DNA of 64,000 bases from a virus, in the IMG/VR virus record IMGVR_UViG_3300027754_005796, positions 1-64,000 of that record; one strand, 5' to 3'. The notes below the pieces were generated by a model. It ran no database searches and was not told the DNA's origin. It saw nothing but the letters and a program-made list of their open reading frames with translations. Made by a program: the position numbers and the translations under genes. Of this stretch, positions 1-56,833 are shown in pieces. Within the stretch, counting starts at the first letter, position 1; each line of letters opens with the position of its first letter.

Positions 1-3000
1 CTTGAGCACCTTGATTGCCTTGATTACCTTGGAATCCTTGAGCCCCTTGATTGCCTTGGAATCCTTGAGCACCTTGATTCCCTTGGAATCCTTGAGCGCC
101 TTGATTCCCTTGGAATCCTTGAGCACCTTGATTGCCTTGGAATCCTTGAGCACCCTGATTACCTTGGAATCCTTGTGCACCTTGATTGCCTTGATTCCCT
201 TGGAATCCTTGAGCACCCTGATTGCCTTGGAATCCTTGAGCCCCTTGATTGCCTTGGAATCCTTGAGCACCTTGATTCCCTTGGAATCCTTGAGCACCCT
301 GATTGCCTTGGAATCCTTGAGCCCCTTGATTGCCTTGGAATCCTTGGAATCCTTGAGCACCCTGATTGCCTTGGAATCCTTGAGCACCCTGATTGCCTTG
401 GAATCCTTGTGCACCTTGATTGCCTTGATTCCCTTGGAATCCTTGAGCACCCTGATTGCCTTGGAATCCTTGAGCACCTTGATTCCCTTGGAATCCTTGA
501 GCACCTTGATTGCCTTGATTCCCTTGGAATCCTTGAGCCCCTTGATTGCCTTGGAATCCTTGAGCACCCTGATTCCCTTGGAATCCTTGAGCACCCTGAT
601 TGCCTTGGAATCCTTGAGCACCCTGATTCCCTTGGAATCCTTGAGCTCCTATGCCTGCAAAAGAACCTGCAATTCCTTGATTGCCTTGGAATCCTTGAGT
701 GCCCTGATTGCCTTGAGCTCCATCGCCCTGAGCTCCAACACCAGCAGCACCTTGAGCACCTTGATTGCCTTGAAATCCTTGGTTTCCTATACCTGCAAAA
801 GAACCTGCAATTCCTTGATTGCCTTGGAATCCTTGAGCACCCTGATTACCTTGGAATCCTTGAGCACCCTGATTGCCTTGGAATCCTTGGCCTTGATTTC
901 CTTGGAAACCTTGATTTCCTTGGAAACCTTGATTTCCTTGATTTCCTTGCAGACCTTGATTGCCTTGAAATCCTTGAAAACCTTGTAGACCTCTAAGTCC
1001 TTGATTTCCTTGATTGCCTTGAAAACCTTGGAGTCCCTGAAAGCCTCTGAATCCTTGATTACCCTGAAGTCCACGAGCTCCTTGCTCGCCAGTCACGCCT
1101 TGATTTCCTTGCTCTCCTAAATCTCCTTGTGCTCCTACTATGCCTTGCAATCCTTGATATCCCTGTTCCCCTTGGAATCCTTGATATCCCTGAGCTCCAT
1201 CTTCTCCTTGATAGCCTTGGTATCCTTGTTCGCCTTGATTTCCCTGTAATCCAAAACCTTGATATCCTTGTCTGCCCTGAAATCCTTGGAATCCCTGCGC
1301 TCCAAATCCGACTTCGCCTTGTGGGCCTTGAGCGCCAACACTTCCAACGCTACCTTGAGAACCTGTATTTCCAGTATTTCCTTGAGCTCCTTGAGCGCCT
1401 TGAGCTCCATTATTGCCTTGTGCGCCTGTTGCACCCTGAGCGCCTTGGGCTCCCTGAGCTCCATCTAGTCCTGCATCACCTTGCGCACCTTGAGCGCCGA
1501 TTACTCCTTGGTTGCCCTGAAAACCCTTCTCTCCCTGAAAACCTTGGGCTCCTCTAGCTCCAGTTAATCCCTGCAATCCTTGCCCGCCTTGATTTCCTTG
1601 ACTTCCCTGTGAGCCCTGCGCTCCCGTGTTTCCATCGCTACCTTGGACACCTGTACTTCCAACTTCACCTTGTGCTCCTGCCGTACCTTGTAATCCTTGA
1701 TAACCCTGAGCGCCTTGGGCACCTTGTGCGCCCTGAGCGCCTGCATCTCCTTGAGCCCCTTGAGCACCTTGAGACCCTTGAGCTCCAGCGCCGGTAGTGC
1801 CCTGAGCACCTTGAGCACCTTGAGCTCCCTGAGCCCCTAGTACACCTTGATTGCCTTGCAATCCTTGGTTTCCAAATTCACCTTGATTTCCTTGCAGACC
1901 AGTTCCTTGATTTCCCTGAAGACCTTGCAATCCTATATTTCCTTGTGGCCCAGCAAGACCCTGAAATCCTTGATATCCGGTATATCCTTGATTTCCTTGT
2001 TGTCCAGTTAAGCCCTGCAATCCAGTTGCACCATCGTTTCCTTGATAGCCACGAAAGCCTTGATTGCCTTGATTTCCTTGTCTGCCTTGATTGCCTTGAA
2101 ATCCTTGGTTTCCTATTCCTGCAAAAGAACCTGCAATTCCTTGATTTCCTTGAAAACCTTGATTGCCCTGATTGCCTTGGAATCCTTGATTTCCTATTCC
2201 TGCAAAAGATCCTGCAATTCCTTGATTTCCTTGAAAACCTTGTCTGCCTTGATTACCTTGGAATCCTTGTTCGCCTTGATTTCCTTGGAATCCTTGTCCT
2301 TGATTTCCTTGATTACCTTGTCTGCCTTGATTTCCTTGGTTTCCTATTCCTGCAAAAGAACCTGCAATTCCTTGATTTCCTTGTAATCCTTGATTGCCCT
2401 GATTGCCTTGGAATCCTTGATTTCCTATTCCTGCAAAAGATCCTGCAATTCCTTGATTTCCTTGGAATCCTTGTTCACCTTGATTTCCTTGGAATCCTTG
2501 ATTGCCTTGATTGCCTTGATTGCCTTGAAAACCTTGCTCACCTTGATTACCTTGAAAGCCTTGCTCGCCTTGATTTCCTTGAAATCCTTGATTTCCTATT
2601 CCTGCAAAAGAGCCTGCAATTCCTTGATTTCCTTGGAATCCTTGTTCGCCTTGATTTCCTTGATTTCCTTGGAATCCTTGTTCACCTTGGAATCCTTGGA
2701 AACCTTGTCTTCCTTGATTGCCTTGAAAACCTTGATTTCCTTGATTTCCTTGGAAACCTTGTCTTCCTTGATTGCCTTGAAAACCTTGATTTCCTTGATT
2801 GCCTTGAAAACCTTGATTTCCTATGCCTGCAAAAGAACCTGCAATTCCTTGATTTCCTTGGAATCCTTGATTGCCTTGTCTGCCTTGATTTCCTTGGAAA
2901 CCTTGTTCACCTTGATTTCCTTGGAAACCTTGTCTGCCTTGGAAACCTTGATTTCCTTGATTGCCTTGGAATCCTTGATTTCCTTGGAATCCTTGATTAC

Positions 3001-3580
3001 CTTGTCTGCCTTGATTGCCTTGGTTTCCTATGCCTGCAAAAGAACCTGCAATTCCTTGATTTCCTTGGAATCCTTGTTCGCCTTGATTTCCTTGATTGCC
3101 TTGGTTTCCTATACCTGCAAAAGAACCTGCAATTCCTTGATTTCCTTGGAATCCTTGTTCGCCTTGATTTCCTTGGAATCCTTGATTTCCTTGTCTTCCT
3201 TGATTGCCTTGATAACCACGAAAACCTTGATTTCCTTGGAAACCTTGTTCGCCTTGATTGCCTTGGAGTCCTTGGTTTCCTATGCCTGCAAAAGAACCTG
3301 CAATTCCTTGATTGCCTTGAAAACCTTGTTCGCCTTGATTTCCTTGATTGCCTTGTCTGCCTTGATTTCCTTGTAATCCTTGAAAACCTTGATTACCTTG
3401 GAATCCTTGTCTACCTTGATTGCCTTGGAATCCTTGTCTGCCTTGATTTCCTTGGAATCCTTGGCCTTGATTTCCCAAAATTCCCTGAAATCCCTGCTCA
3501 CCTTGATTGCCTTGATTGCCTTGATATCCAGAAGGGGAGCCTTGAACGCCTTGAGAACCTTGATTGCCTTGTTCTCCCTG
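1..3580. repeat. 9-bp-period tandem repeat array (ccttgattg/ccttggaat variants) with 11 interspersed ~30-bp units
   Basis: Visible 9-nt periodicity; recurrent tcctatNcctgcaaaagaNcctgcaattcc unit encodes GIAGSFAGIG on the minus strand. Confidence 0.9.
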
Positions 3581-3724
3581 CATGTTGTCCACGCCAATTT
3601 TTGCGGAAACAACGAAATCTCTCAGGTCTTGGGCTGTGATGCCCCCTGCGATATTGTCGGCAAAAGCGCACAGTAGTTCTTCTTCAGTTCTTGGTGTACC
3701 TTGCGCTCCACATGGATCAGCCAT
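1..3724 (-). CDS. Collagen-like (Gly-X-Gln) fibre protein, partial (runs off left edge; about 1,241 codons in window)
   Basis: ATG at 3724 with AGGA SD upstream; MADPCGAQGTPRTEEELLCAFADNIAGGITAQDLRDFVVSAKIGVDNMQGEQGNQGSQG then continuous GFQ/GNQ/GAQ/GRQ triplets. The same frame reads G-A-Q at positions 10..2. Missing from the ORF track, consistent with no stop inside the window. Confidence 0.92.
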   Translation of the reverse strand, partial: MADPCGAQGTPRTEEELLCAFADNIAGGITAQDLRDFVVSAKIGVDNMQGEQGNQGSQGVQGSPSGYQGNQGNQGEQGFQGILGNQGQGFQGNQGRQGFQGNQGRQGFQGNQGFQGLQGNQGRQGNQGNQGEQGFQGNQGIAGSFAGIGNQGLQGNQGEQGFQGNQGFRGYQGNQGRQGNQGFQGNQGEQGFQGNQGIAGSFAGIGNQGNQGNQGEQGFQGNQGIAGSFAGIGNQGNQGRQGNQGFQGNQGFQGNQGNQGFQGRQGFQGNQGEQGFQGNQGRQGNQGFQGNQGIAGSFAGIGNQGFQGNQGNQGFQGNQGRQGFQGNQGNQGFQGNQGRQGFQGFQGEQGFQGNQGNQGEQGFQGNQGIAGSFAGIGNQGFQGNQGEQGFQGNQGEQGFQGNQGNQGNQGFQGNQGEQGFQGNQGIAGSFAGIGNQGFQGNQGNQGLQGNQGIAGSFAGIGNQGNQGRQGNQGNQGQGFQGNQGEQGFQGNQGRQGFQGNQGIAGSFAGIGNQGFQGNQGNQGFQGNQGIAGSFAGIGNQGFQGNQGRQGNQGNQGFRGYQGNDGATGLQGLTGQQGNQGYTGYQGFQGLAGPQGNIGLQGLQGNQGTGLQGNQGEFGNQGLQGNQGVLGAQGAQGAQGAQGTTGAGAQGSQGAQGAQGDAGAQGAQGAQGAQGYQGLQGTAGAQGEVGSTGVQGSDGNTGAQGSQGSQGNQGGQGLQGLTGARGAQGFQGEKGFQGNQGVIGAQGAQGDAGLDGAQGAQGAQGATGAQGNNGAQGAQGAQGNTGNTGSQGSVGSVGAQGPQGEVGFGAQGFQGFQGRQGYQGFGLQGNQGEQGYQGYQGEDGAQGYQGFQGEQGYQGLQGIVGAQGDLGEQGNQGVTGEQGARGLQGNQGFRGFQGLQGFQGNQGNQGLRGLQGFQGFQGNQGLQGNQGNQGFQGNQGFQGNQGQGFQGNQGAQGFQGNQGAQGFQGNQGIAGSFAGIGNQGFQGNQGAQGAAGVGAQGDGAQGNQGTQGFQGNQGIAGSFAGIGAQGFQGNQGAQGFQGNQGAQGFQGNQGAQGFQGNQGAQGFQGNQGNQGAQGFQGNQGAQGFQGNQGAQGFQGNQGNQGAQGFQGNQGAQGFQGNQGAQGFQGFQGNQGAQGFQGNQGAQGFQGNQGAQGFQGNQGAQGFQGNQGAQGFQGNQGNQGAQGFQGNQGAQGFQGNQGAQGFQGNQGAQGFQGNQGAQGFQGNQGAQGFQGNQGNQGAQ

Positions 3725-3737
3725 TTTTATTTCCTAA

Positions 3738-4106
3738 TTACCTAAAAGCGTTTTGATCAAAAGATGCAGAAAATTCCGTGCCTTGTCCATTTGCCAGATT
3801 TTCCTGAATGGTTCTACAAGCAATTGTTGCTAGTTCATATGAAACTGGATAACCCACCCAAGCTCCATCTGAAATGTTTCCAATACAAACAGATTGGTTG
3901 CTCTGGGTAGCACAACTGTAAAACCACTCTGCTTTGAAGCAACAATCTGCAAAAGGCGTTCTAAGTGGACAACTTGCAGATGTATTAACGATATTTGAGT
4001 CAGTTTTTTGGGCAGTCAAAGCCTTGCTCATTTGTATTTGACTGTTTCTAATAGCAATCATCGGAACAATTGATGTAGGATTTTTTGTTGGTCTTTGTCT
4101 TGCCAT
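3738..4106 (-). CDS. Hypothetical Cys-containing protein, possibly structural, upstream of the collagen gene
   Basis: 122-aa ORF with AGGAG SD, co-oriented with the collagen gene. Confidence 0.65.
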   Translation of the reverse strand: MARQRPTKNPTSIVPMIAIRNSQIQMSKALTAQKTDSNIVNTSASCPLRTPFADCCFKAEWFYSCATQSNQSVCIGNISDGAWVGYPVSYELATIACRTIQENLANGQGTEFSASFDQNAFR

Positions 4107-4122
4107 TTTACTCCTTTAATAA

Positions 4123-4404
4123 TTATTTCAGTTCAGGTCCTTGAGTTGCCATCTTTCTTATCAAGTCCGCTAGTGTTCCTTCGCCTGCTCGAACTTTTCC
4201 AATCACTTGTTCTTGAGCTTCATCGCTCAATTCCTTAAATTCTCCCAAACTGTTCAACATACTTATCAAGTTTTCTGGTTCCCAAGTATTGAGTGTTGCA
4301 GACAAACCTTCACTCCTATCTAAATTGAGTTTTCCAAGAACCAAATTCTTGTAAAACTCAAAGTCTTTTTCCTCATCTTCAAGCCAAATTTTGAAACTTA
4401 GCAT
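4123..4404 (-). CDS. Hypothetical protein with MLSFKIWLE N-terminus (putative virion internal protein)
   Basis: ORF 4123..4422; more likely start is ATG 4404; FKxWLE motif. Confidence 0.65.
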   Translation of the reverse strand: MLSFKIWLEDEEKDFEFYKNLVLGKLNLDRSEGLSATLNTWEPENLISMLNSLGEFKELSDEAQEQVIGKVRAGEGTLADLIRKMATQGPELK

Positions 4405-4449
4405 ATATTTTCTCACATACATTAAAAGCCGTATGATATATACATCTGT

Positions 4450-5262
4450 ATGAACAGATTGTCATTTAGTTATTGGCTTAAAAATGAAATGGCCAATTAC
4501 GGCTTTGGTGATACCACCAACCAGATAATGGGCGGAACCCAGTCAATGACCGGAGATAGCCTTTTTCAGCCTATCAATACATCTTTGATCATGAATGAAC
4601 TGGTCAAAATGCCAAATCTTGGAACTATTGAAGCAAATCAAATTTGGGATGATTGCATCCAATGGGGAACTGAACCCGGAGCTTTTAGCGCATCGATATC
4701 GCCTCTTGGCTCCATGAGAGTAGTCACCAGAAGGCTAACCAAGGACTTAGAAGGCACTCCAACTTGGATTTGCAAAGAAATTTATGGAATCAACGATTTT
4801 GACGACCAGCACAAAGAAAAACATATAGCTCATCGTGTATTTGATGAAATTGTAGAAATGAACAAAGAAAACCTTGATGCTCCTGTAAAAGAATACAACG
4901 ATATTGAAAAACTTGCTTGGAAGCTTTGGCACGCAACCAAAAAACAACATCCTTCATACATCATGTTTCCAACCACGCTCAGAAAACAGGATGAAAATTA
5001 TTACAAGTTAGTTTATGAATTCCGTGGACAGGGAGTTGGGACTCCCAACAACGGAAAAACTGGTCGTGCAGAACAATTCGATATAGATCTTGTCTATTAT
5101 CCAAAAAGAGGCTTAATTCGTTGTTTTGGATATGATATTGACAGCAGAATGAGGCAAAGAGATTGGTATGTATCGACTATGGAGTGGAATGAATTCTTTT
5201 CGCCCCACCAAGATGATACAAAAATAATTGAATCAATTATCAAGATTTTTTTGCAATATTAA
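4450..5262 (+). CDS. Hypothetical phage protein (MNRLSFSYWLKNE N-terminus)
   Basis: 270-aa ORF; ATATATA box 7 nt upstream. Confidence 0.75.
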   Translation: MNRLSFSYWLKNEMANYGFGDTTNQIMGGTQSMTGDSLFQPINTSLIMNELVKMPNLGTIEANQIWDDCIQWGTEPGAFSASISPLGSMRVVTRRLTKDLEGTPTWICKEIYGINDFDDQHKEKHIAHRVFDEIVEMNKENLDAPVKEYNDIEKLAWKLWHATKKQHPSYIMFPTTLRKQDENYYKLVYEFRGQGVGTPNNGKTGRAEQFDIDLVYYPKRGLIRCFGYDIDSRMRQRDWYVSTMEWNEFFSPHQDDTKIIESIIKIFLQY

Positions 5263-5979
5263 TCCTTCTTGCGGAAACAATTCCTGAAATTTCTTAAGAA
5301 CAAGATCGTTGATGCAAGGCTCATAGACCTTTACATCAAAATTGATTTTTTTATGATCTTCTTCTGTTAGCAATTTCTGAGCAAATGGCGAAATTGCTAA
5401 ATAATAAGGAGAAATTTTCTGTAGATTTATCCAGCGAAAAATATTTTTGTTAATGTGGCATTCTTGGATTTTTTCAAAAGTATAATCTCCACCAATTGTT
5501 TTTGCCAAAAACTCTTTGGTTTTTTCAATTCCTTCGAGCGCCTTCAAAATTGCCTGAGGAGATTTTTGTATCTCTTTATCAACCGGTCTTTTACAGATGA
5601 CATCGTATCTTCTCTTCCAAAGCTTCCATCGTTTCCAAGCTTTTTCACCAACCAAGCAGTTGGGATCAATAAGAGGAGTGGATTTTCCACTATTTATATG
5701 GCGCAAAACATCTAATTGTGCTTGAACATAAAGATGATATTCATCATTGGCAAGCACGCCTTGGGTTTCTCTAACCAATTTATAACAAATTTTAAATATT
5801 AAAGATTTTCTTGGATCGCCTTTGGCCATAGTGGCATGGCGATAATTTGGAAAAATCTTTCGGCTTTTGTCTAACCAAAGCAAATTGACTTTATAAGCCA
5901 TTGCTTCAAGCTCGTTCATTTCATATTCGATGATGGCATCGAGTCTCAAATCACCATCTCCATTTTTTCTTTTTGTCAT
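5233..5979 (-). CDS. Hypothetical protein
   Basis: 248-aa ORF with GAGG SD; no recognised motif. Confidence 0.7.
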   Translation of the reverse strand: MTKRKNGDGDLRLDAIIEYEMNELEAMAYKVNLLWLDKSRKIFPNYRHATMAKGDPRKSLIFKICYKLVRETQGVLANDEYHLYVQAQLDVLRHINSGKSTPLIDPNCLVGEKAWKRWKLWKRRYDVICKRPVDKEIQKSPQAILKALEGIEKTKEFLAKTIGGDYTFEKIQECHINKNIFRWINLQKISPYYLAISPFAQKLLTEEDHKKINFDVKVYEPCINDLVLKKFQELFPQEGLILQKNLDN

Positions 5980-6017
5980 ACTACCTCAATTTAGATTTTC
6001 CACAAGAGCGCCATCAA

Positions 6018-6905
6018 ATGAAAATAGTTTTTTGTCCTTTGGTCAGCAAAGATTTGCCAAGAGCAATTCGTGCCTGCAATTCAATTCGCAATCAGATGCC
6101 AACACAGTATCTTGAGCAACATTTAGTACCAATTATCAATTCAAAAGATAACGAATTTATTGATCAATTTGCAGAATGGTGTGAAACAGAGCGCATTCCT
6201 TACAGAATAACAAGGTCCAAAGGCACTCCAAGCAGAGGCAAAAACGAAGTTCTGAAGTTTTTTAGAGAATCTGAATATGATGGGATGAGTATGTTTGATG
6301 GAGACGACCTATTTTACCCATCTGCTGCACGACAAATTGAAAGACACTTGCTGCACCACCCCGGTACAGATGTCTTGATCACTAAGCCAAGCGATCAAAT
6401 AAACAACTGTCCAGAAAATGGTATTCCATTATCAGAAAATATTTTTGCATGTGTTTGGGACAGCAACTTTTATCCTATGCCTTACAATTACGGACCCGGA
6501 ACAGCAGATATTTTCATAGCTGGTCAATCAGCTTGCAGGAATTTAGGTGGACATGTCTTTTATAGCAAAAAAGTTGCAAATTTGGTTCAATATGACGAAG
6601 ATCAGTTGTTGGGAGAAGATGCGTTAATTGAATATGAAATGTTAAAATTACATCAAGAAGCAAAAATTTGTTTCTGGTTGACTTTTGCTACAGATATTCA
6701 ATTTCTTGATAGGTCTTATAATGGAAATATACAATCTGAAAGAAATGAAACAGATGGATATTTTTATTTTCAAAGGCTTTTAGGAAAGGTTCCTAACATG
6801 ATAGATGTCAATAGAAGCGCCTTTCGTGAGTTGCCTGTGGAGTTTCCTCCAATTATTTTTACTATACAACAAAAAATTGAATGGATTAGAACACAACTGA
6901 TTTAA
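6018..6905 (+). CDS. Glycosyltransferase-like protein (GT-A fold)
   Basis: ORF 5973..6905, probable start MKIVFCPL at 6018; 'GTPSRGKN' and DGDD (DxD) motif as in GT2. Confidence 0.6.
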   Translation: MKIVFCPLVSKDLPRAIRACNSIRNQMPTQYLEQHLVPIINSKDNEFIDQFAEWCETERIPYRITRSKGTPSRGKNEVLKFFRESEYDGMSMFDGDDLFYPSAARQIERHLLHHPGTDVLITKPSDQINNCPENGIPLSENIFACVWDSNFYPMPYNYGPGTADIFIAGQSACRNLGGHVFYSKKVANLVQYDEDQLLGEDALIEYEMLKLHQEAKICFWLTFATDIQFLDRSYNGNIQSERNETDGYFYFQRLLGKVPNMIDVNRSAFRELPVEFPPIIFTIQQKIEWIRTQLI

Positions 6906-6908
6906 GTC

Positions 6909-6936
6909 TTGACTTAGTGCAAAAATTATTTAAAAT
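6909..6936 (+). promoter_or_regulatory. Sigma70-like promoter preceding the structured noncoding region
   Basis: TTGACT (6909-6914), 16-nt spacer, TAAAAT (6931-6936). Confidence 0.6.
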
Positions 6937-6942
6937 CTAGTT

Positions 6943-7515
6943 ACTGTCGTTGGTAGGCTGGCTTGGTGTTTACAGGTCTTAAATGCCCTGTTCGTCGGCA
7001 AGTTACGCTGAAACTATTTAATAACTGAGATGAGCACTCGCTTGCTTCTTCGACTTTAAAAAGGTTTCGTACTACCTGATTAAAGTTGATGTAAAAACCT
7101 GTGGTGCCCCAAACTGGGTGAGTCTTTGTAGTTGTTGCGAAACAACGAATGCTGCTACGGGAAGCATTGTAAACCACAACAGAGAAGGTAAAGGCTGGGC
7201 GGCAAATTAGGCTGAATTTGCACAAGCAGACAGGGTGTGAACTGCCCAGATTTAGGACTCTGTAACCAAAGTACGCTGTATTGCGCAACTCATATGAGTT
7301 TGCATTGCAGGAGATTGATGTTTTGTAGAAGATTGATTAGGCTTAAACGCCAAAAAATTTGCTCTACTAAATTGATTTCTTCTAAAGGTATAAATTCTAT
7401 ATCTTTATAAATGCAAGAGCATCCTCGAGTCAGCCCCCCGGTGCAATATGGGATTGTAAAGCAGAATTTATAATTTTTTCTTGTTTCTTTTTGCCGTTGA
7501 CTTAATGGCAAAAAA
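6943..7515 (+). ncRNA. Candidate large structured ncRNA (core about 6960-7310), family unknown
   Basis: Long-range closing helix 6963-6984/7250-7269; helices 7050-7059/7080-7089, 7100-7105/7173-7178, 7131-7146 (GCGA tetraloop), 7195-7202/7242-7249, 7389-7398/7463-7472; pseudoknot 6985-6991/7230-7236; many G-U pairs point to the + strand. Confidence 0.65.
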
Positions 7516-7531
7516 ATTTCAGACTTAAATT

Positions 7532-8860
7532 ATGGATACATCAAAACTTGCTGAAACTTTGTCTCAAGTAGATCAACGCCATGTCTACATGCGTTGTAAC
7601 CCTGAAATCTTTGACTTTACAGACAAAGACTCCGTCTATGAGTTGCAGTTTTTTACTCATGGTGGTATGAATTTTACTATAAATTTAACAGACGATAATA
7701 TTCCTATAGTTTTGAGTATGCTTCGTATATCTCTCTTTCATAAAGATTGCAAGGTTTTGGTTTGGAATTGGAAATCTTTTGCTAGTTTTGTTTTATTCAA
7801 AACTAAAAAAGTCTACACAGTTGATGCTGCAATCATAGACTTGAAAATCATCGAATCTTTTTCAGGCTTCAAGCTCAAAGCTCCTAACGGCTTGGTAGAT
7901 GCCCTCAATAGGCTCAAAAATCTCATTACAGGCGGTTTCTGGAAGGATGTTGAGTCAACCTACAAAGTTGTTCATTTCCCCCTAATGACGACAGTTTTGC
8001 CCCATCTGGAGACAACTGGCGTTTTGAGCATCGAGAGTAGCAACAAGGTTTATGGTTATTACGAGATTGATGGTCAAGAGAATGGTCGTCTCAAGTGTCA
8101 TGGTGCTTTCAAACACAGCTTTGTGCCTCATGCTTTGAAGGCTGACACAAAAGCTGATCTGAAGCCAAGGTCGCAAGATGAGTTGTTTATGAACTTTGAT
8201 TTTCGAGGCATGGAGGTTTTTGTTCTAGCGCATTTAAGCGGCGATGAGCTTCTGAAAGAAATGTGTAAAGAAGTTGATATTTATTCATCTTTGTATAGGG
8301 AGTTGATGAAAAAGGAAATTTCTACAAAAGATGACAGGGAATTGGCAAAAAAATTATTTTTGCCGGTTATATATGGACAGTCTGCCTACTCGCTTTCTCA
8401 GCGATGTGGGTTTGCAATAGATATTGCAGAAGCTGTAGTCGAGCGAATTTGTTCTTCGTTCAAGGTCGCAGTTTCTTATGTCGCCGGATTTGAAAATCAT
8501 GTCAAACAACATGGTTACGCTAAAGACCTCTTTGGCAAAAGGCGCAGCAATTTTGAATCTGGCAAAGAGTATCTTGCACGCAATTTTGCCGTGCAATCAC
8601 CTGCTGCCACGATTTGTTCTGAAAAACTGATAAACCTTTATTTTGCTTTGAAAGACAAGGCTAATATCGCTTATACTGTTCATGATGGTTATGTGGTGTA
8701 TGCCACAAAAGACAATTGGAAACAGATTTATCAGATCGGCATGGATATTTTGACATCCGAATCTGATATGTGCGCCGGATTACGGCTTAAAGTGGCTTGC
8801 CGTGCCGGTCGAAATCTCAATGACCTTAAGCCCCTTGGTCGCAAAGGAGAAAAATGTTAG
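7532..8860 (+). CDS. Truncated family A DNA polymerase (palm and fingers, no thumb, degenerate exonuclease-like N-terminus)
   Basis: Motif A FDFRGMEVFVLAHLSGD, motif B RELAKKLFLPVIYG, RNFAVQSPAA, motif C VHDG; LETTGV and NGRL only about 20 aa apart. Confidence 0.85.
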   Translation: MDTSKLAETLSQVDQRHVYMRCNPEIFDFTDKDSVYELQFFTHGGMNFTINLTDDNIPIVLSMLRISLFHKDCKVLVWNWKSFASFVLFKTKKVYTVDAAIIDLKIIESFSGFKLKAPNGLVDALNRLKNLITGGFWKDVESTYKVVHFPLMTTVLPHLETTGVLSIESSNKVYGYYEIDGQENGRLKCHGAFKHSFVPHALKADTKADLKPRSQDELFMNFDFRGMEVFVLAHLSGDELLKEMCKEVDIYSSLYRELMKKEISTKDDRELAKKLFLPVIYGQSAYSLSQRCGFAIDIAEAVVERICSSFKVAVSYVAGFENHVKQHGYAKDLFGKRRSNFESGKEYLARNFAVQSPAATICSEKLINLYFALKDKANIAYTVHDGYVVYATKDNWKQIYQIGMDILTSESDMCAGLRLKVACRAGRNLNDLKPLGRKGEKC

Positions 8861-9414
8861 ACATATGCACTACTTTTCGTATCACCGAAGATGAATATTT
8901 GGAGTTGGAGAGGCGTTTTGGAAAATTGACTTGGCACGCTGCCCATGAGCTTAAAAAGAAAAATTCCAACAACAATTTCATCGAAGACGCAGAAGATATC
9001 AAACAAGAATTGCAAATGTCAATGTTGCGTGCAGGTTCTTATTACAAGCGTCAAGTTTATATCGAAAAATGTCTTGCTGTCGCAAAGAAATATGCCACAG
9101 ACAAGTTTGTTTTGTCTGTTGTCGAAGAACTAGAAAATTTGTGGGCCAATCGAACCCGTCATGGGGCAAATCGTCAAAAATATGGGAAATTTCAAGAAAA
9201 AATTCTTGATAGTATCGTTAGAAAGTTAGTGCCCAAAAACGAAAGTCCCGATAAGTTCGCACCTCTTAGAATTGATGCTAAATTTGCAACTTATTGCAAA
9301 GCAATCGTGTGGAATGGCCAGAAAAGCATGGGTAAGAAAATTACTCGTGAAAAATCCATTCGCAGCGGAATGGTTTCTTTAAGTGAGTTTGATTATTTGC
9401 AGCAGACTCATTAA
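8854..9414 (+). CDS. Sigma70 region-2-like protein (possible phage late sigma factor)
   Basis: AEDIKQELQMSMLRAGSYY (region 2.2-like) and KFATYCKAIVWN (2.3/2.4-like); no region 4; overlaps the polA stop. Confidence 0.55.
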   Translation: MLDICTTFRITEDEYLELERRFGKLTWHAAHELKKKNSNNNFIEDAEDIKQELQMSMLRAGSYYKRQVYIEKCLAVAKKYATDKFVLSVVEELENLWANRTRHGANRQKYGKFQEKILDSIVRKLVPKNESPDKFAPLRIDAKFATYCKAIVWNGQKSMGKKITREKSIRSGMVSLSEFDYLQQTH

Positions 9415-9417
9415 TTA

Positions 9418-9532
9418 ATTTAGACGGCATAGTTCCCCGCCTTATTGTTAATCCTACCTATCTATAAAATAATTAATCGGTGAAAATGTTATATCGGATT
9501 GCTGTAAAGTTTTGCGGGGTGCTGTTCTAAAT
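9418..9532 (+). ncRNA. Candidate rod-shaped structured RNA element
   Basis: ATTTAG/CTAAAT, ACGGCA/TGCTGT, CCCCGC/GCGGGG, AATCC/GGATT and TATAA/TTATA nested helices. Confidence 0.4.
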
Positions 9533-9539
9533 AGGTTAT

Positions 9540-9920
9540 ATGAGATTTAGAGATTATCTAACACAAAGAGTTTTGGCTTTGGGAGACAAGAACTGGTACG
9601 GCAATTATTGCGGACCCGGACCTGCTTTGTCTAAGCCAGATTGCAACAAGCTTCTTCGTGGCGATCCTTTGCCTCCAGCAAAGGATGGTGTCGATGATGC
9701 TTGCAGAGTTCATGATATCGATTATTGTTTGGCTGGAAAAGACTGGCGTGCAGCCTTGCCGTTACGCCTTTTCAGAAACCCTGACACAGTAAGTGCAGAT
9801 CAAAAGTTTATCAAAAAAATTAATTTTTTGTTTCAAAATTCCAAGCTTTCTCGTGAAGCTGAAGTGGCAGCAAAATTGATTTTGTTATATTTTAACAAGG
9901 TTACGCCTAAATCCGATTAG
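9540..9920 (+). CDS. Phospholipase A2-like protein
   Basis: YGNYCGPG Ca-binding loop and DDACRVHDIDY catalytic HD motif, as in sPLA2 and parvoviral PLA2. Confidence 0.75.
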   Translation: MRFRDYLTQRVLALGDKNWYGNYCGPGPALSKPDCNKLLRGDPLPPAKDGVDDACRVHDIDYCLAGKDWRAALPLRLFRNPDTVSADQKFIKKINFLFQNSKLSREAEVAAKLILLYFNKVTPKSD

Positions 9921-10030: not shown

Positions 10031-11557
10031 ATGCGTGAGTTAACTCCCGAAGAGCAAGCCAAACTTGAGGCCATGACTGATCCCGAAGTCGTCAAGCCTA
10101 AGTTTGGTTGGGATGATACATTTCAAAGAAAATTGTTAGGAATGCTGCTCACGGACCAATATATGCTGGTCCAAGCTATGGACAAAATAGAACCTGCTTA
10201 TTTCAGCAATGAAGTCCACATCTTGATTTGTAAAATATTGTTGAAATATTTCAATGAAAGAAAAGCTCTTCCAGAAAAGTGGATTTTGATTCAGGAGTTG
10301 AATGAGCAGATCAAAGAAAGAGATAAGACGGTCCAGCTTCACTATCTCGCTGAATTGAACGCAGTCTATGATTATTTTGTTCCGGGTGTTGAAACTCGTG
10401 AATATTTGATTGATAAAGTCACATATTTTGCAAAGGTTCAGGCGGTAAAGCTGGCTTTCCACACAAGTCTTGAAAAAATGCAGGAAGCTCCTGAAGATGA
10501 AAAGACATGGTCTTTTGTTTACGAAAAAATGCGACAGGCCATGATGATTGACCGAAGTTATGAACCCGGATTGGAATATTTCATAAATATTGATGAAATG
10601 TTCCGGCGAATGGATGATGTTTTTATTGGCAAAGATAGATTTACATCCGGTTTTCCATCCATAGACAACGCACTTACTGGTGGGGGGATGTTTGCAGGTC
10701 AGATTGCCAGTTGGATCGGTCTTCCCGGTACTGGCAAGTCGTTGGCTCTTGTGAAAGCTGCTGTGCAGAATGTCCTCTTGGGACATAAAGTGTTGTACAT
10801 AACTTTGGAAATGGATGAATTAGGCATCACACAGCGTTTTACATCTCAATTTGCCAAGCTTGACATCAACAATCTGCGTGGTGTTAAAGATACGGTCATA
10901 CGAACAATCGAGGAATTCAAAAAGGACAAAGAAGACCCTAACCTTTTGCATGTCAAACAGTTTCCCGGTGGTTCTATTGATGTGAATGGCATTCGTGCCT
11001 ACATGGCTCAATTGGAATTGCGTGGCTGGAAACCAAACCTTTTTGTTTTGGATTATGTTGGCGAAATGAAAGATGATCCAAATTTGAAGAAATACGAATC
11101 GGCATACAAAATTCTGCGTGATCTCAGAGGTTTTGCCGTAGAAAAGCAACATTGCATTTTTACTTGTGTCCAGCCGAATGCTAGTGCTGCAAAGCTTGAA
11201 ATTGGCCAGTATATTGATGAAAGCAACATTGGCACATCTTTCGATCAGTTCAAGCCGTTGGATGCATTTTGGAGCATTAATCAGCAAGTATTGGAAAAGG
11301 ACGCAGAAGTAGGAAGGGTTTTTGTTATTAAGCACCGTAATGGTCGTTCACGGTTTCCTTTCAAAATCTCTTTTGATTACAAGCTGGGCACATTGGATAT
11401 GTTTGAAATAAGCAAGGATAGATATCGTGAAGCCATGAATCTGGTTCAGGAGAAAAAGGCATCTGAGATTTCTCTTGATAATGTTGAAGCCCCTGCGAAA
11501 AAGGGCAGAAGCAAAAAGCCATTTAAGGGCGATGATATTGAAACCTACGAAGCTTAG
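10031..11557 (+). CDS. Replicative DnaB/T4 gp41-like helicase
   Basis: Walker A GLPGTGKS, YITLEM, LFVLDY, IKHRNG. Confidence 0.9.
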   Translation: MRELTPEEQAKLEAMTDPEVVKPKFGWDDTFQRKLLGMLLTDQYMLVQAMDKIEPAYFSNEVHILICKILLKYFNERKALPEKWILIQELNEQIKERDKTVQLHYLAELNAVYDYFVPGVETREYLIDKVTYFAKVQAVKLAFHTSLEKMQEAPEDEKTWSFVYEKMRQAMMIDRSYEPGLEYFINIDEMFRRMDDVFIGKDRFTSGFPSIDNALTGGGMFAGQIASWIGLPGTGKSLALVKAAVQNVLLGHKVLYITLEMDELGITQRFTSQFAKLDINNLRGVKDTVIRTIEEFKKDKEDPNLLHVKQFPGGSIDVNGIRAYMAQLELRGWKPNLFVLDYVGEMKDDPNLKKYESAYKILRDLRGFAVEKQHCIFTCVQPNASAAKLEIGQYIDESNIGTSFDQFKPLDAFWSINQQVLEKDAEVGRVFVIKHRNGRSRFPFKISFDYKLGTLDMFEISKDRYREAMNLVQEKKASEISLDNVEAPAKKGRSKKPFKGDDIETYEA

Positions 11558-47664: not shown

Positions 47665-49121
47665 ATGAGCAAAGAAAGATCATGTGTGGAGATAGTAGGT
47701 TATGAGCACCTACATCTCCACACAGATTCCTTGCCCCCGGCAGAATATCTGTCGGGGGCGCAAAAAACTTTAGTACGCTTGACGGATATGGGACTGTAGA
47801 GGAGTATGCCTTAAGGTCCATTTCAAATAATCAGAATTTTCTCACGGTTACAGATCATGGAATGATGGGTGTCATTCCACGGCAAATTCGAGCCTGCGAC
47901 AAGATTTGTGACAAACACGGCAAAGATAAACTATCTCCAATATTTGGATGTGAATTGTATGTAAATCGTCTTCAGCCAGCTACTGAAGGCTTGGAAGACA
48001 TGCGTAAGTTTATGGCCGATCTCAATGAGGAAGAGGCATTTGAACTCAAGGCTAGTCCTCATCTTTTGGCAATTGCATACAACGAAACGGGTTATAAAAA
48101 TCTGGTCAGACTTTCCAGTTGGGGTTGGACTAAGGGCTTTTATCGCCGCCCCAGAGTCAACTATGAACAGTTGCAAAAGTATAAAGAGGGTTTGATATTT
48201 ACAAGTTGTTGTTACAACAGCGAAATTGGTAGAGCCTATGAGGCTGGTGGCGAAGAAGCCGCCTGTGCCATGATCGAGCGATATGTTGGCATGTTTGGCA
48301 AAGAAGACTTTTATCTTGAAATCATGCTCTTGGATTTCAAGAAACAAAAACCCTATGACGCTTTCATAGTCAAAGCCAAAGAAAAATATGGTTTGAAATT
48401 AATCATTACGAACGATGTGCATTATTGTAATAAGCAGGACAGTCATTTTCAAAGATTGATGCTCATGGTTCAGACAAACAGGAGTATCAAGGATATTCAG
48501 CGTGCTTTGGCCGAAGACAATATGCGAGACTTTTTTGAATTGCAGGATTCTAATTTGTGGTTTAAGTCCGAAGAGGAATTAAATGAAAAGTGGATCGTTG
48601 AATACAGCGATGTGATTCCTTATGAGTTATTTTGCGAAGCAAAGCGCACTACTGTTGAAGTTTGCCGTAAGGCTAAAGGTGTAGAACTTGACCGGAGTCT
48701 TAAACTTCCGCAGATACCTAATGCTGATGATATTTTGAAAGATGAAGTTCTGAGGGGTGCGAAGTTCCGTGGAATTCCACACACGAGAGAATATTTAAAT
48801 CGAATCAAGGAAGAATACAGCTTGATCATTCGTAAGGGCTTTGCAAGTTACTTTTTGATACAAAAGATGATGACAGACGAGGCACGCAGAGTTTGCGTTG
48901 AGCTTCTTGGGTGGGGAGATGGTTCGCAAGCTTTGGGTCCCGGTCGTGGGAGTGCTGTGGGAGCTTTGACTTGTTACTGCTTGGGTATTACGAATGTTGA
49001 TCCCGTGAGAGAAGGATTGTTGTTCAGTAGATTTCTTTCTGAGGCCCGTGGTGGCAGGTCTTTGGTCCTTGAGTTCAAAAATATTGATCCATTGCCGCCA
49101 CATGAGGCTTTTAAAGATTAA
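47665..49121 (+). CDS. dnaE: DNA polymerase III alpha N-terminal half (PHP plus start of palm), interrupted by a 41-nt insert
   Basis: Frame from ATG 47665 gives YEHLHLHTD; a different frame resumes FSTLDGYG at 47769 and continues TDHG, GCE, TNDVHY, GPGRGSAVG, LLFSRFL to TAA 49121. Confidence 0.85.
47728..47768 (+). other. 41-nt hairpin insertion (candidate recoding/bypass element or micro-intron)
   Basis: TCCTTGCCCCCGGCAGAATATCTGTCGGGGGCGCAAAAAAC; 12-bp stem 47733-47744/47748-47759; removal restores HTD-FSTLDG. Confidence 0.75.
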
Positions 49122-54085: not shown

Positions 54086-56833
54086 ATGAGTCGTGAAGAA
54101 TTTATACATGTTTTGGACAAGGCATTCAAGAATAGCGGACACGCCAATGATGTCCGTTATCAGAAAAGGTATAAGTGGGAATTTGATGAGATTTTAGGGA
54201 AAGAAAAATACCAGTATTTTTTTGATCTGTATAAAACAAAAACTCGCTATCCGCAGAATCAAAACAATCTTTTGGTCTGCAAGTTATTGGGAATTGTTCC
54301 CGATTTTGATATAGATAAAGAACCCGCCTATGTTTTTACAGGCGATTTGCCAGATATCGATATCGACTACTTGCCTGCTGTGCGTGATTATTTAAAAAAC
54401 ACTTGGGCAAGTAAGACATTTGGCGAAGAGTATGTTTGCAATATTGGGAACTACACTACTTTTGGATTAAAGTCCGCTCTGATTGACATGGCTCGTGTCC
54501 ATGATGAATCTCGTGAAGAGATAATGGCGATTACTAAAAACTTAGAGGCGAAGGATGATGAAGGTAATCCCATGACTTGGGACGCTGCCTTGCGTTTGAA
54601 TTTAGAGCTTAAGGAGTATGCTGATAAGTATCCACAGATCGCAGATGCTGCTCGTAGATTGGTGAACCGCAATCGTGGCATGGGTGTTCATGCTGCTGGG
54701 CTTATTGTTTCAAGCATTCCCCTGCATGATCTTGTGCCCTTGGTGAAAAGAAAAGATACCCCACAGGCATCGGCATGGGTGGAAGGCTTGCATGGTCAGG
54801 ACTTGCAGCCTGTAGGGTTGGTAAAGTTTGATTTACTGGTTATTTCAAACTTATTGCAGATTGCTCGGTGTTGTGAATTGGTTAAGAATCGTCGTGGCTT
54901 AAAGGGCATTTGCAATCGTCCAAACGAACCCGACTGGACAGATGTTGATCAATGGCGAAACGATCCTGAAGCACTTTCGATGGCAAATGCCGGTGATCTG
55001 AAGTGTATTTTCCAGTTTGATAGCGAGGGCATGCGAGGTCTTATCCGTTCTGGTGGTGTTGATCGATTTGAAGACTTAGTGGCCTATTCTGCGCTTTTTA
55101 GGCCGGGTTGCTTAGCGTCAGGTATGACCAAGCGTTATGTTGAACGCAAGAAGGGTCGTGAGAAATTTTCTATCCATCCTCTGATGCAGCCCATTCTTGA
55201 AAAAACTTATGGGATTATGGTCTATCAAGAACAAATCATGCAGGTATTGTATGTGGTCGGTGATATTCCTTTAAAAGACTGTGAAATTATTCGTAAAGCG
55301 ATCAGTAAGAAGAAGATTGAGGCTTTTATCAAATATAAAGAAATGTTCATTGTCAATGGACAAAGGAATCTGCAAGCTTCAGAAGAATATTTGGTTGAGC
55401 TTTTTCAGCAGGTCGAGACATTTTCAGAGTACGGGTTTAACGCTTCTCATGCAGTTGCTTACAATTACATTTCTAGCATGTTGTTGTATCTCAAAGCCCA
55501 TTATTCTCATGAGTTCTATGCTTCTATGTTGAGTTGTGAAACTCTGAGTGAAAAAATCAAGGATTACAAAATGGAGGCCAAGGTGCATGGGGTGGACATG
55601 CATCGTCTTGATATCAATAAATCTAAGGTCAATTTTGAATTGATTGGCGATATGATTTATTATGGGTTTTCAAAGGTGAAGGGAATAGGAGACAAACCAG
55701 CAGAAAAGATTGTCGCTGGGCAACCTTACAAATCGTTCGAGGACTTTTTGTATCGTTGCACAACTGACTCATCTATTTTGAAACCAATTCTTGGTTTGCG
55801 TTGTTTTCGTGATCGTGATCCAGTTGTGCTTTGGAAGTTTGCTGATCATTTCAAAGACTGCATGAAAAAGAATGACGATAAAAAAAAGCGATATGAAAAG
55901 TCGTTGGAAAAGTATGAAATGGAGTTCAAGGAGCTTGTCCCATCTGATACTAGACTTTTGAGTGATTTTTCCGGCGATCAGCCTTTTGATGCTGATGAAT
56001 GGAAAAAGTACGATGTCAACGAACTAGTGGATGTGGATCAAGAAACTGAGTGCGAGCAGTCCGAGGGAGGCGAGGCAAGGATCGTTAAGGAAGAAGTGAC
56101 AGTTGATGATACTGATGTGTTGGTTGAGCGTGAAGTCACACGCTATTTCAAGATTGTAAAAATCAAAAAGCCTAGAAATGTTTTGGTGCAATTAAAGAAG
56201 TTGTGGAAGAAGCGAAAGCTGACCATAGATCGCCGTATGAATGCGACTTTCAAGGAATTGCCTCAGTTGGTTGAGTTTAATGGTGATGAGCATCAAATTG
56301 ATGATAGTCTTTTGAAGGAATTGCGTGATCCGGTCCAATGTGAGCAGCTTTATTATGGATGGGCTTGGATACATGAATTGGAGCGCAGTCCAGACTACAA
56401 GGGGAATCTGACTTTTGATGCTCTTCGCAACAATATTGATCAAGTTGCAGGTCCTGCGGAATTACAGATTAAGAAAAGCGCATCTGTAAAGAGTCAGAAG
56501 GGAACGACATATAGGCAGATAATTGCTGAGGATGTGACTGGACAGGAGAATAAGATCAATATTTGGGCCGAGGATTGGGGGCGTTGGGCAGAAGAATTTA
56601 AAGTTGGTAACTTACTTAGAGTACGGATACAGCCTCCGTCTGGCGGGTTCAATACTTTTACTTTGGAATCGAACCAGCTAGGCAAATACCGTGGCAGCAA
56701 AAAATATCGGGACAAGGATGATGATCCAAGGGTTTTTGTCATGCAATTTGGCAAGAAAGAAGAGGAAAAATTTCTTAGCGACGAGGAGGCATTGTTACAG
56801 TTTTCGGCTTGTAAAATGAAAGAGAAACCATGA
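54086..56833 (+). CDS. dnaE: DNA polymerase III alpha C-terminal half (catalytic palm, fingers, HhH, OB fold)
   Basis: DLPDIDID, GVHAAG, LVKFDLL, IFQFDS, ALFRPG, TYGIMVYQEQ, YGFNASHAVAY, GFSKVKGIG. Confidence 0.92.
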   Translation: MSREEFIHVLDKAFKNSGHANDVRYQKRYKWEFDEILGKEKYQYFFDLYKTKTRYPQNQNNLLVCKLLGIVPDFDIDKEPAYVFTGDLPDIDIDYLPAVRDYLKNTWASKTFGEEYVCNIGNYTTFGLKSALIDMARVHDESREEIMAITKNLEAKDDEGNPMTWDAALRLNLELKEYADKYPQIADAARRLVNRNRGMGVHAAGLIVSSIPLHDLVPLVKRKDTPQASAWVEGLHGQDLQPVGLVKFDLLVISNLLQIARCCELVKNRRGLKGICNRPNEPDWTDVDQWRNDPEALSMANAGDLKCIFQFDSEGMRGLIRSGGVDRFEDLVAYSALFRPGCLASGMTKRYVERKKGREKFSIHPLMQPILEKTYGIMVYQEQIMQVLYVVGDIPLKDCEIIRKAISKKKIEAFIKYKEMFIVNGQRNLQASEEYLVELFQQVETFSEYGFNASHAVAYNYISSMLLYLKAHYSHEFYASMLSCETLSEKIKDYKMEAKVHGVDMHRLDINKSKVNFELIGDMIYYGFSKVKGIGDKPAEKIVAGQPYKSFEDFLYRCTTDSSILKPILGLRCFRDRDPVVLWKFADHFKDCMKKNDDKKKRYEKSLEKYEMEFKELVPSDTRLLSDFSGDQPFDADEWKKYDVNELVDVDQETECEQSEGGEARIVKEEVTVDDTDVLVEREVTRYFKIVKIKKPRNVLVQLKKLWKKRKLTIDRRMNATFKELPQLVEFNGDEHQIDDSLLKELRDPVQCEQLYYGWAWIHELERSPDYKGNLTFDALRNNIDQVAGPAELQIKKSASVKSQKGTTYRQIIAEDVTGQENKINIWAEDWGRWAEEFKVGNLLRVRIQPPSGGFNTFTLESNQLGKYRGSKKYRDKDDDPRVFVMQFGKKEEEKFLSDEEALLQFSACKMKEKP

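Follow-up and report, generated by a model that had tools for sequence, protein, structure and literature searches.

Large RNAs of complex tertiary fold are uncommon; the majority of known examples have proved to be ribozymes or the cores of ribonucleoproteins. Among phage-encoded RNAs, GOLLD (RF01998) and ROOL (RF03087) are several hundred nucleotides long, multi-domain, pseudoknotted and of unassigned function; they are usually separate genes near tRNA genes. OLE RNA is likewise large (about 600 nt) and conserved; it is transcribed together with adjacent genes, and the Oap proteins that these encode bind it. ColE1 RNA II (about 550 nt) is a structured, promoter-driven transcript at a replication start region, with a family A polymerase as its partner and a separate replicase acting afterwards. 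Here we analyse an RNA of about 530 nt that lies directly upstream of a family A DNA polymerase gene (polA) in the IMG/VR virus record IMGVR_UViG_3300027754_005796. The window analysed is the first 64 kb (64,000 nt) of this 172,833-bp record. Because a record of this size was judged only about 40% complete, its source is a huge phage, one of a group of such freshwater phages that is abundant. Very probably, the element represents a new class of large phage RNAs with pseudoknots. It stands at the head of a conserved unit that consists of polA and the gene for a 186-residue protein (p186) and that ends in a conserved hairpin.

The RNA shares size, multi-domain architecture and pseudoknots with GOLLD and ROOL. 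However, no sequence or structure match to either was found at E <= 10, and the present RNA keeps a fixed place before a polymerase gene, without a terminator of its own in the window. Compared to OLE, hosts and partner proteins differ, and no Rfam match links the two. The likeness to RNA II lies in a promoter-driven structured transcript of about 500–550 nt accompanied by a skew switch, a family A polymerase (PolA) and a DnaB-like helicase. An RNA–DNA hybrid, RNase H processing and an antisense regulator are features of RNA II, whereas the phage locus is likened to it by position. Moreover, the tertiary fold predicted for the phage RNA is far more elaborate than RNA II requires, and the DNA downstream is the polA gene itself.

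On the protein side, a survey of family A polymerases describes the 'broken thumb' groups APEX and CHEAP as well as CCPol of the staphylococcal cassette chromosome (SCC), which works with the protein MP and a helicase; the CCPol–MP pair gains priming activity, and no thumb-less subfamily is described in the text of the survey (PMC10201439). The locus studied here resembles the CCPol–MP–Cch2 system in having a truncated or remodelled family A polymerase beside a small partner protein and a helicase. However, CCPol lacks most of its exonuclease domain and not its thumb, and MP is a beta-barrel whereas p186 is predicted to be helical and sigma-like. In APEX and CHEAP the thumb is kept with disrupted helices, whereas in PolA about 130 residues are replaced by about 37. 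With its 186 residues and a predicted helical fold that aligns to sigma domain 2, p186 recalls the domain-2-only sigma factors of the T4 gp55 type. It differs from these by the lack of a Sigma70_r2 or PHROG match, by an internal insertion and by its translational coupling to a DNA polymerase gene. In T4, gp55 links late transcription to replication. The RNA locus offers an entry point to two questions, how replication starts in huge phages and what large phage RNAs do. In addition, a thumb-less family A polymerase nearly always coupled to a small sigma-like protein is new and could matter for processivity and enzyme engineering.

A conserved structured RNA upstream of polA

The unit contains the following features.

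6909..6936, + strand: sigma70-type promoter of the RNA, TTGACT-16-TAAAAT (promoter match; counterpart in the closest relative, L016)
6943..7470, + strand: large structured RNA, about 530 nt (fold z score, no Rfam match, core in 30 contigs)
7497..7525, + strand: degenerate copy of the RNA promoter, TTGACT-17-CAGACT, before polA (sequence similarity)
7532..8860, + strand: polA, family A DNA polymerase without thumb, 442 aa, with an exonuclease-like N-terminal domain (Pfam, AlphaFold2 (AF2) model, profile alignment)
8854..9414, + strand: p186, 186 aa, basic (pI 9.4), predicted all-helical and sigma domain 2-like (AF2, VIA-align, language-model features)
9423..9526, + strand: rod, a 104-nt hairpin closing the unit (architecture and compensatory changes in relatives)

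A 626-nt gap separates the open reading frame (ORF) ending at 6905 from that starting at 7532, and no conserved ORF was found in it (6906-7531). Against shuffles, the fold of the RNA has a z score of -4.75 on the + strand versus -1.66 on the - strand. Two minus-strand ORFs tile the gap (6941-7288, 115 aa; 7290-7511, 73 aa). They are absent from relatives, and a minus-strand gene was therefore rejected. When positions 6850-7600 were compared to Rfam 15, no match was obtained at the gathering threshold (GOLLD, ROOL, OLE, HEARO, RNase P, tmRNA, introns and 6S included); at E <= 10 only four chance-level matches to unrelated small families appeared (E 0.8-5). A group I or group II intron was also considered. 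This reading was dropped because no flanking exons joining into one frame are present; PolA starts at an aligned methionine in all homologues, and the promoter abuts the 5′ end of the RNA.

An ORF-poor gap of about 550–700 nt precedes polA in nearly all of the PolA homologues collected from viral and metagenome contigs. Iterated nhmmer searches and a covariance model identified a core of about 445 nt, corresponding to 7023-7469 of the window, upstream of PolA homologues in 30 distinct contigs. Where PolA identity has dropped to 37%, covariance-model scores of the RNA remain above 130 bits and nhmmer scores are about 240 bits, showing that the RNA is better conserved than PolA. One subclade lacks the first hairpin domain of the RNA.

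The closest relative carries TTGACA-16-TAAAAT at the place equivalent to the promoter at 6909-6936, and a promoter match is found within 55 nt upstream of the RNA in 17 of 25 loci. In most loci with such a match, the 5′ strand of the long-range pairing PK1 (see below) begins 7–12 nt past the -10 element, which fixes the strand and the start of the RNA. The 5′ end (6943) was deduced from the promoter and PK1, and the 3′ end (about 7470) is set where conservation stops.

Divergent phages share the order and the strand of RNA, thumb-less PolA, sigma-region-2-like protein and rod, while the gene 5′ of the RNA varies from locus to locus and lies on the opposite strand in many of them. A first-pass annotation of the window had proposed such a module: a promoter, about 570 nt of dense, pseudoknotted structure, a 442-aa PolA retaining the motif A and C aspartates without a thumb, an overlapping sigma-like gene and a closing rod, in a genome that also encodes DnaE. 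These elements were all recovered. Homologues of PolA yielded 30 upstream elements with a strong compensatory signal, and the sigma reading of the overlapping gene is moderately supported by fold and language-model features.

Secondary structure and covariation

The alignments suggest a fold of three domains with at least ten helices, joined by three long-range pairings (PK1, PK2 and a long-range helix), all of which co-vary.

6944-6948/7229-7233, + strand: PK1, 5′ strand CUGUC with GACAG in the PG hairpin loop
6950..7008, + strand: 58-nt insertion, lineage-specific (window and L016 only), separating PK1 from the 5′ domain
7024..7092, + strand: 5′ domain, with an ACUGAGA motif, P1, P2 and P2a
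7032-7036/7043-7047, 7051-7059/7080-7088 and 7062-7065/7074-7077, + strand: P1, P2 and P2a of the 5′ domain
7069-7072/7271-7274, + strand: PK2, GUAC in the P2a loop with GUAC about 200 nt apart
7093..7274, + strand: core domain, seven helices PA-PG and the 3′ strand of PK2
7100-7105/7173-7178 and 7106-7109/7116-7119, + strand: PA and PB of the core
7131-7136/7141-7146 and 7148-7153/7163-7168, + strand: PC (GCGA loop) and PD (loop GCUACGGGA) of the core
7180-7184/7258-7262, 7195-7202/7242-7249 and 7218-7223/7235-7240, + strand: PE, PF and PG of the core
7210-7215/7430-7435, + strand: long-range helix, GGCUGA with UCAGCC, joining the core to the 3′ domain
7275..7470, + strand: 3′ domain, several hairpins varying in a compensatory way, topology partly resolved
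7276-7310, 7340-7342/7349-7351 (conserved loop UUAAAC) and 7384-7392/7398-7406, + strand: hairpins of the 3′ domain

In the core, a junction stem closes three hairpins and is followed by a second multi-stem arm. With a MAFFT alignment of 23 sequences, 80% of the cells were paired, versus 35–47% for slid partners, and 36 of the 41 pairs were double-changed. None of 500 shuffles matched the observed values on four measures, and one did on further pair types. With the alignment made by the covariance model (R1), which is biased toward structure because it was fitted to it, 86% of the cells were paired versus 34–43% for slid partners, 37 of 40 pairs were double-changed, and shuffles matched the observation in 0 of 500 cases on four measures and in 3 of 500 on further pair types. 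The + strand has many G-U pairs, in agreement with a + strand RNA.

Compensatory changes were observed in the long-range pairings as well as in the core. PK1, in which the first nucleotides of the transcript are paired so that the 5′ end is tied down, occurs in at least eight co-varying versions at the homologous position, among them CUUGUC/GACAAG, CUCGUC/GACGAG, CUCGU/ACGAG, UCGUU/AACGA, AUCGC/GCGAU, CUUGCA/UGCAAG and CUUGCAC/GUGCAGG, and a permutation test of cognate versus non-cognate strands gave p of about 0.002. PK1 was scored by position and duplex energy because MAFFT alignment of the 5′ two-thirds misplaced the PK1 strand in the window and L016. For PK2 the duplex-energy test was noisy and a fixed-register count was used instead: 84 of 88 cells were paired, with six sequence versions including GUGC/GCAC, AUAC/GUAU, GUAU/AUAC and AUGC/GCAU. 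The six pairs of the long-range helix are 95% canonical and show five extra pair types.

In the alignments, the stems of the 5′ domain also appear to vary in a compensatory way. In the 3′ domain, the UUAAAC hairpin and the 7384-7406 hairpin have partial support and a small hairpin at 7411-7422 is unsupported. RNAalifold returned almost no pairs for the whole element or for the 3′ domain because MAFFT misaligns the variable stems. The 3′ domain is therefore only partly resolved.

Transcript layout and closing hairpin

No terminator was found between the RNA and polA in the window. In front of polA, positions 7497-7519 are 78% identical to 6909-6931, and the -10-like hexamer of this degenerate promoter copy ends 7 nt before the polA ATG. 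Since there is no terminator and only this weak promoter-like copy, the RNA is predicted to be made, at least in part, as the leading portion of the polA-p186 transcript. Across loci, the conserved RNA ends 60–200 nt ahead of the start codon, the spacer being variable in length and sequence. A promoter-like site was detected in this spacer in 10 of 25 loci, and no second promoter match in the other 15. In locus L040, a matching geometry is seen before polA with a better -10 element, CATAAT. The polA gene has no obvious Shine-Dalgarno sequence; together with the promoter copy, this suggests a possible leaderless polA mRNA.

At the other end of the unit, the rod has the following parts.

9423-9429/9520-9526, + strand: basal stem
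9430-9434, + strand: 5-nt bulge, UAGUU
9435-9440/9514-9519, + strand: inner stem, below a variable A+U-rich top

A hairpin of the same architecture (91–111 nt) stands right after p186 in 11 of 11 main-clade relatives. Its base is a perfect helix of 6 bp; above this come the conserved bulge, UAGUU or a variant of it, another stem and a top that is rich in A+U and varies. Compensatory changes affect 13 of the 15 predicted pairs. The window rod alone (9412-9545) folds no better than shuffles (z = -1.37), and nhmmer searches with it gave no match in any of the loci; homology is visible only in structure and short motifs. In 8 of the 11 relatives a tract of 4–7 U directly follows the homologous stem, and the rod is thus an intrinsic terminator in these phages. 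In the window, the stem is followed by CUAAAUAGG, without a U-tract.

Two other clades have the same kind of hairpin with a second sequence type. It is seen after the p186 homologue in L011 (5898-6070), L012, L013, L014, L027, L065 and L069. Its base stems co-vary (GAGAAUG/CAUUCUC, GGAGUGGAG/CUCCACUCC), and an inner motif, GGGUAGUGGAUUGCCG, is conserved with variants.

The bulge of the rod and its neighbours (9430-9434 in the window; 10 relatives) resemble a -10 hexamer (TATAGT, TGTAGT, CATAGT, TGTAAT), and this site directly follows the sigma-domain-2-like gene. The bulge could be a protein-binding site.

A thumb-less PolA and its partner p186

The Pfam model DNA_pol_A (PF00476, E 1.9e-30) covers only residues 201-429 of PolA, which correspond to model positions 136-379 of 381. 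The AF2 model, built with 39 homologues (pLDDT, the predicted score for the local distance difference test, 94), comprises an exonuclease-like fold (1-133), a single helix (136-162), then palm and fingers. No thumb subdomain was found: Pfam positions 1-135 are unmatched, and one helix lies between the exonuclease-like fold and the palm. Foldseek matched PolA to Pol nu and Bst Pol I with E 1e-21. The model superposes over its full length on Bst Pol I, Klenow, Pol nu and Pol theta, leaving about 140 target residues over. In the profile alignment residue 171 of PolA stands opposite Bst Pol I chain position 306, which indicates that about 37 residues stand in the place of about 130 in Bst Pol I, the thumb among them. 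All of the 39 aligned homologues are short (401–461 aa), and the whole family is therefore thumb-less.

Assignment to family A is supported by D223 (motif A), R269 and K273 (motif B) and D385 (motif C), which are invariant in the 39 homologues. Y281 of motif B is conserved in the nine closest homologues, and motif C reads HDG, not HDE. D28 and D103 are the sole conserved acidic residues of the N-terminal domain, where no DxE was found by eye. With so few acidic residues left, this domain probably lacks the full set of catalytic carboxylates, and its exonuclease is probably inactive. As a DnaE, split into two genes, is also encoded, PolA is unlikely to be the main replicase.

The ATG of p186 at 8854 lies 7 nt inside polA. 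Almost every locus has a p186 gene after polA, in many cases with stop and start codons that overlap, and the p186 product is 53–87% identical across loci versus 31–78% for PolA. Its homologues form 786 database clusters at 90% identity, all unnamed. No match was found in Pfam (including Sigma70_r2, PF04542), PHROG or NCBIfam, in a Foldseek search of the PDB, or at significance in a PDB sequence profile search. With the AF2 model of p186 (pLDDT 85), sigma domain 2 makes up many of the top 50 VIA-align matches over 70–85 residues, at Z 6–7.6, values within the chance range for helical proteins. In language-model features, the nearest neighbours of p186 are viral Sigma70_r2 atlas clusters (0.94, 119–134 shared features). 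We propose with moderate confidence that p186 is sigma-domain-2-like; it may serve as a sigma factor or, alternatively, as an accessory of the polymerase.

Homologues of p186 were also seen on four contigs of metagenome-assembled genomes (MAGs), L126-L129, which carry the labels archaeon, Chloracidobacterium, Bacteriovoracaceae and Acidimicrobiaceae; two of the four measure 271 and 546 kb. Most likely, they are huge-phage contigs binned with cellular genomes. Because the taxon labels are inconsistent, no host was deduced from them.

Linkage of the RNA to the polymerase

R1 finds exactly one copy of the RNA per genome record, always directly before polA; four control genomes gave exactly one match each. 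In the PolA tree, all RNA-bearing polymerases (23 of 23) fall into a single clade, with support 95/95, that is nested among thumb-less PolAs without the RNA. Several of these other PolA genes are preceded by only 21–114 nt. No R1 match was obtained in a complete 572-kb genome that encodes a thumb-less PolA and p186, in the sister clade (L015, L031, L032, L063), in distant clades or in the four p186-bearing MAG contigs. Since the whole family is short, the RNA clade is nested and the 572-kb genome is without the RNA, loss of the thumb preceded the RNA and was independent of it; thumb-less polymerases with the sigma-like partner are the older arrangement.

The sister clade has promoter-led, ORF-poor upstream regions (L015:3250-3946, L031:1810-2500, L063:1810-2500, L032:360-1050) that contain conserved blocks and what look like hairpins; between L032 and L063, identity is 76% over 164 nt. 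Judging by these features, this upstream element may be a diverged or analogous RNA.

Genome position and a possible role in replication initiation

The locus falls at the minimum or at a turning point of the cumulative GC skew in 4 of 4 genomes.

G000 (this genome): skew minimum at 6 kb, then rise over 166 kb; RNA at 6.9 kb
G006: V-shaped skew minimum at 54-58 kb; RNA at 59.6 kb
G008: skew flat, with a rise from about 72 kb; RNA at 70.3 kb
G007: skew rises from the RNA-bearing contig end; RNA 6.6 kb from that end

This pattern is suggestive of an origin-proximal element, and it strengthens the alternative of an origin that the first-pass annotation had raised. In the window, GC skew and AT skew are both strongly negative across the initial 4 kb and change sign near 5–6 kb. 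Positions 1-6000 have a higher G+C content (up to 0.52).

We tentatively favour a role for the RNA in the initiation of replication, in keeping with its place at the skew switch, near a DnaB-like helicase gene and in a genome with a split DnaE. The RNA would be transcribed from the 6909-6936 promoter as the first element of the RNA-polA-p186-hairpin unit and, once folded, would act at or beside the phage origin. There PolA, presumably of low processivity, would use it as a pre-primer or scaffold, as Pol I does with RNA II, before the helicase and DnaE take over.

Several points weigh against such a role. Gene orientation, which GC skew also follows, changes close to the locus, so the skew is no proof of an origin. 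Around the RNA, neither iterons nor DnaA-box-like repeats were found. To our knowledge, primer and pre-primer RNAs have no need for an elaborate tertiary fold. Thumb-less PolA together with p186 occurs without the RNA, the complete 572-kb genome being one case. Finally, with a promoter-like site in the spacer of 10 of 25 loci, transcript architecture may differ among lineages.

Alternative readings of the element

The RNA could be a giant cis-regulatory leader, that is, a 5′ untranslated region of the polA-p186 mRNA. It would respond to a metabolite or to a protein, which may be PolA, p186 or a host factor, and thereby set the amounts of polymerase and sigma-like factor produced. Leader-based autoregulation of phage replication proteins is established; T4 gp43 and gp32 repress their own mRNAs. 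The layout also agrees with a leader, the RNA lying directly 5′ of polA on the same strand, with no intervening terminator in the window, no second promoter match in 15 of 25 loci, and a conserved terminator-like rod at the end of the unit. However, about 450–530 nt and three long-range pairings go far beyond any protein operator or riboswitch known, and the variable spacer that separates the RNA from the start codon shows no conserved expression platform. The promoter-like sites between RNA and polA in 10 of the loci, and the better conservation of the RNA than of the protein to be regulated, also argue against it. On balance, we regard a leader as rather unlikely.

A free-standing ornate RNA of the GOLLD/ROOL kind, unrelated to PolA and merely parked at a divergent promoter region, would account for the size and ornateness of the element, its phage origin, its own promoter and its likewise unassigned function. 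We consider this unlikely, as the RNA has no similarity to GOLLD or ROOL in Rfam, keeps its place relative to polA while the upstream neighbour changes, and has no terminator of its own in the window.

More speculative is the proposal that RNA, thumb-less PolA and p186 form one origin-specific ribonucleoprotein, in which the RNA would supply a primer or a grip on the duplex and p186 would read single-stranded DNA, with the UAGUU bulge of the rod as a candidate site. We give this little credence. If true, it would be an RNA-built replication initiation machine without known counterpart among family A polymerases.

The first-pass annotation had gone further in suggesting that the RNA is a stoichiometric partner of PolA, forming a ribonucleoprotein polymerase in which it grips or templates the duplex in place of the thumb. 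PolA is truly thumb-less, and the RNA is strictly adjacent to its gene and co-inherited with it within one clade. CCPol–MP offers the precedent of a truncated family A polymerase that gains priming activity with a small partner (PMC10201439). However, all 39 homologues are short, including those of the clades with 21–114 nt before the gene, and the RNA clade is nested among them; with the complete genome that has no RNA match, these results count against a replacement of the thumb by the RNA, which is unlikely as a general rule, although a partnership limited to the RNA-bearing lineage could exist. Co-inheritance is weak evidence here, since kin share traits. A retron- or telomerase-like arrangement did not emerge, PolA being a family A polymerase and not a reverse transcriptase, and no template element was identified. 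We know of no family A polymerase with an obligate RNA subunit, and the ribonucleoprotein polymerase appears improbable.

That the element is no RNA at all, and instead a DNA-level origin structure or a degraded or unrecognised minus-strand protein gene, is highly improbable: two minus-strand ORFs do tile the gap at a skew switch, but these ORFs are not kept in relatives, substitutions in the helices are compensatory without three-base codon periodicity, G-U pairs and fold z favour the + strand, the promoter sits exactly at the paired 5′ end, and iterons were not found.

Neighbouring genes

The order of features is promoter, structured RNA, polA, overlapping p186 gene, a 125-nt spacer, a phospholipase-A2-like ORF and a DnaB-like helicase gene.

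10031..11557, + strand: DnaB-like helicase gene (Pfam DnaB_C and DnaB; syntenic in relatives)

The phospholipase-A2-like ORF (9540-9920, 126 aa) has a weak Pfam match (E 2.9e-4, under the curated cut-off).

The two DnaE genes are about 5 kb apart. One (47862-49121) carries the PHP domain and the beginning of the pol III alpha domain; the other (54086-56833) carries the remainder, with finger and HhH domains. Between them lie glycosyltransferase/methyltransferase and carbamoyltransferase genes as well as a phage tmRNA (50266-50618; Rfam 129.7 bits) with the tag peptide DETVHALAA.

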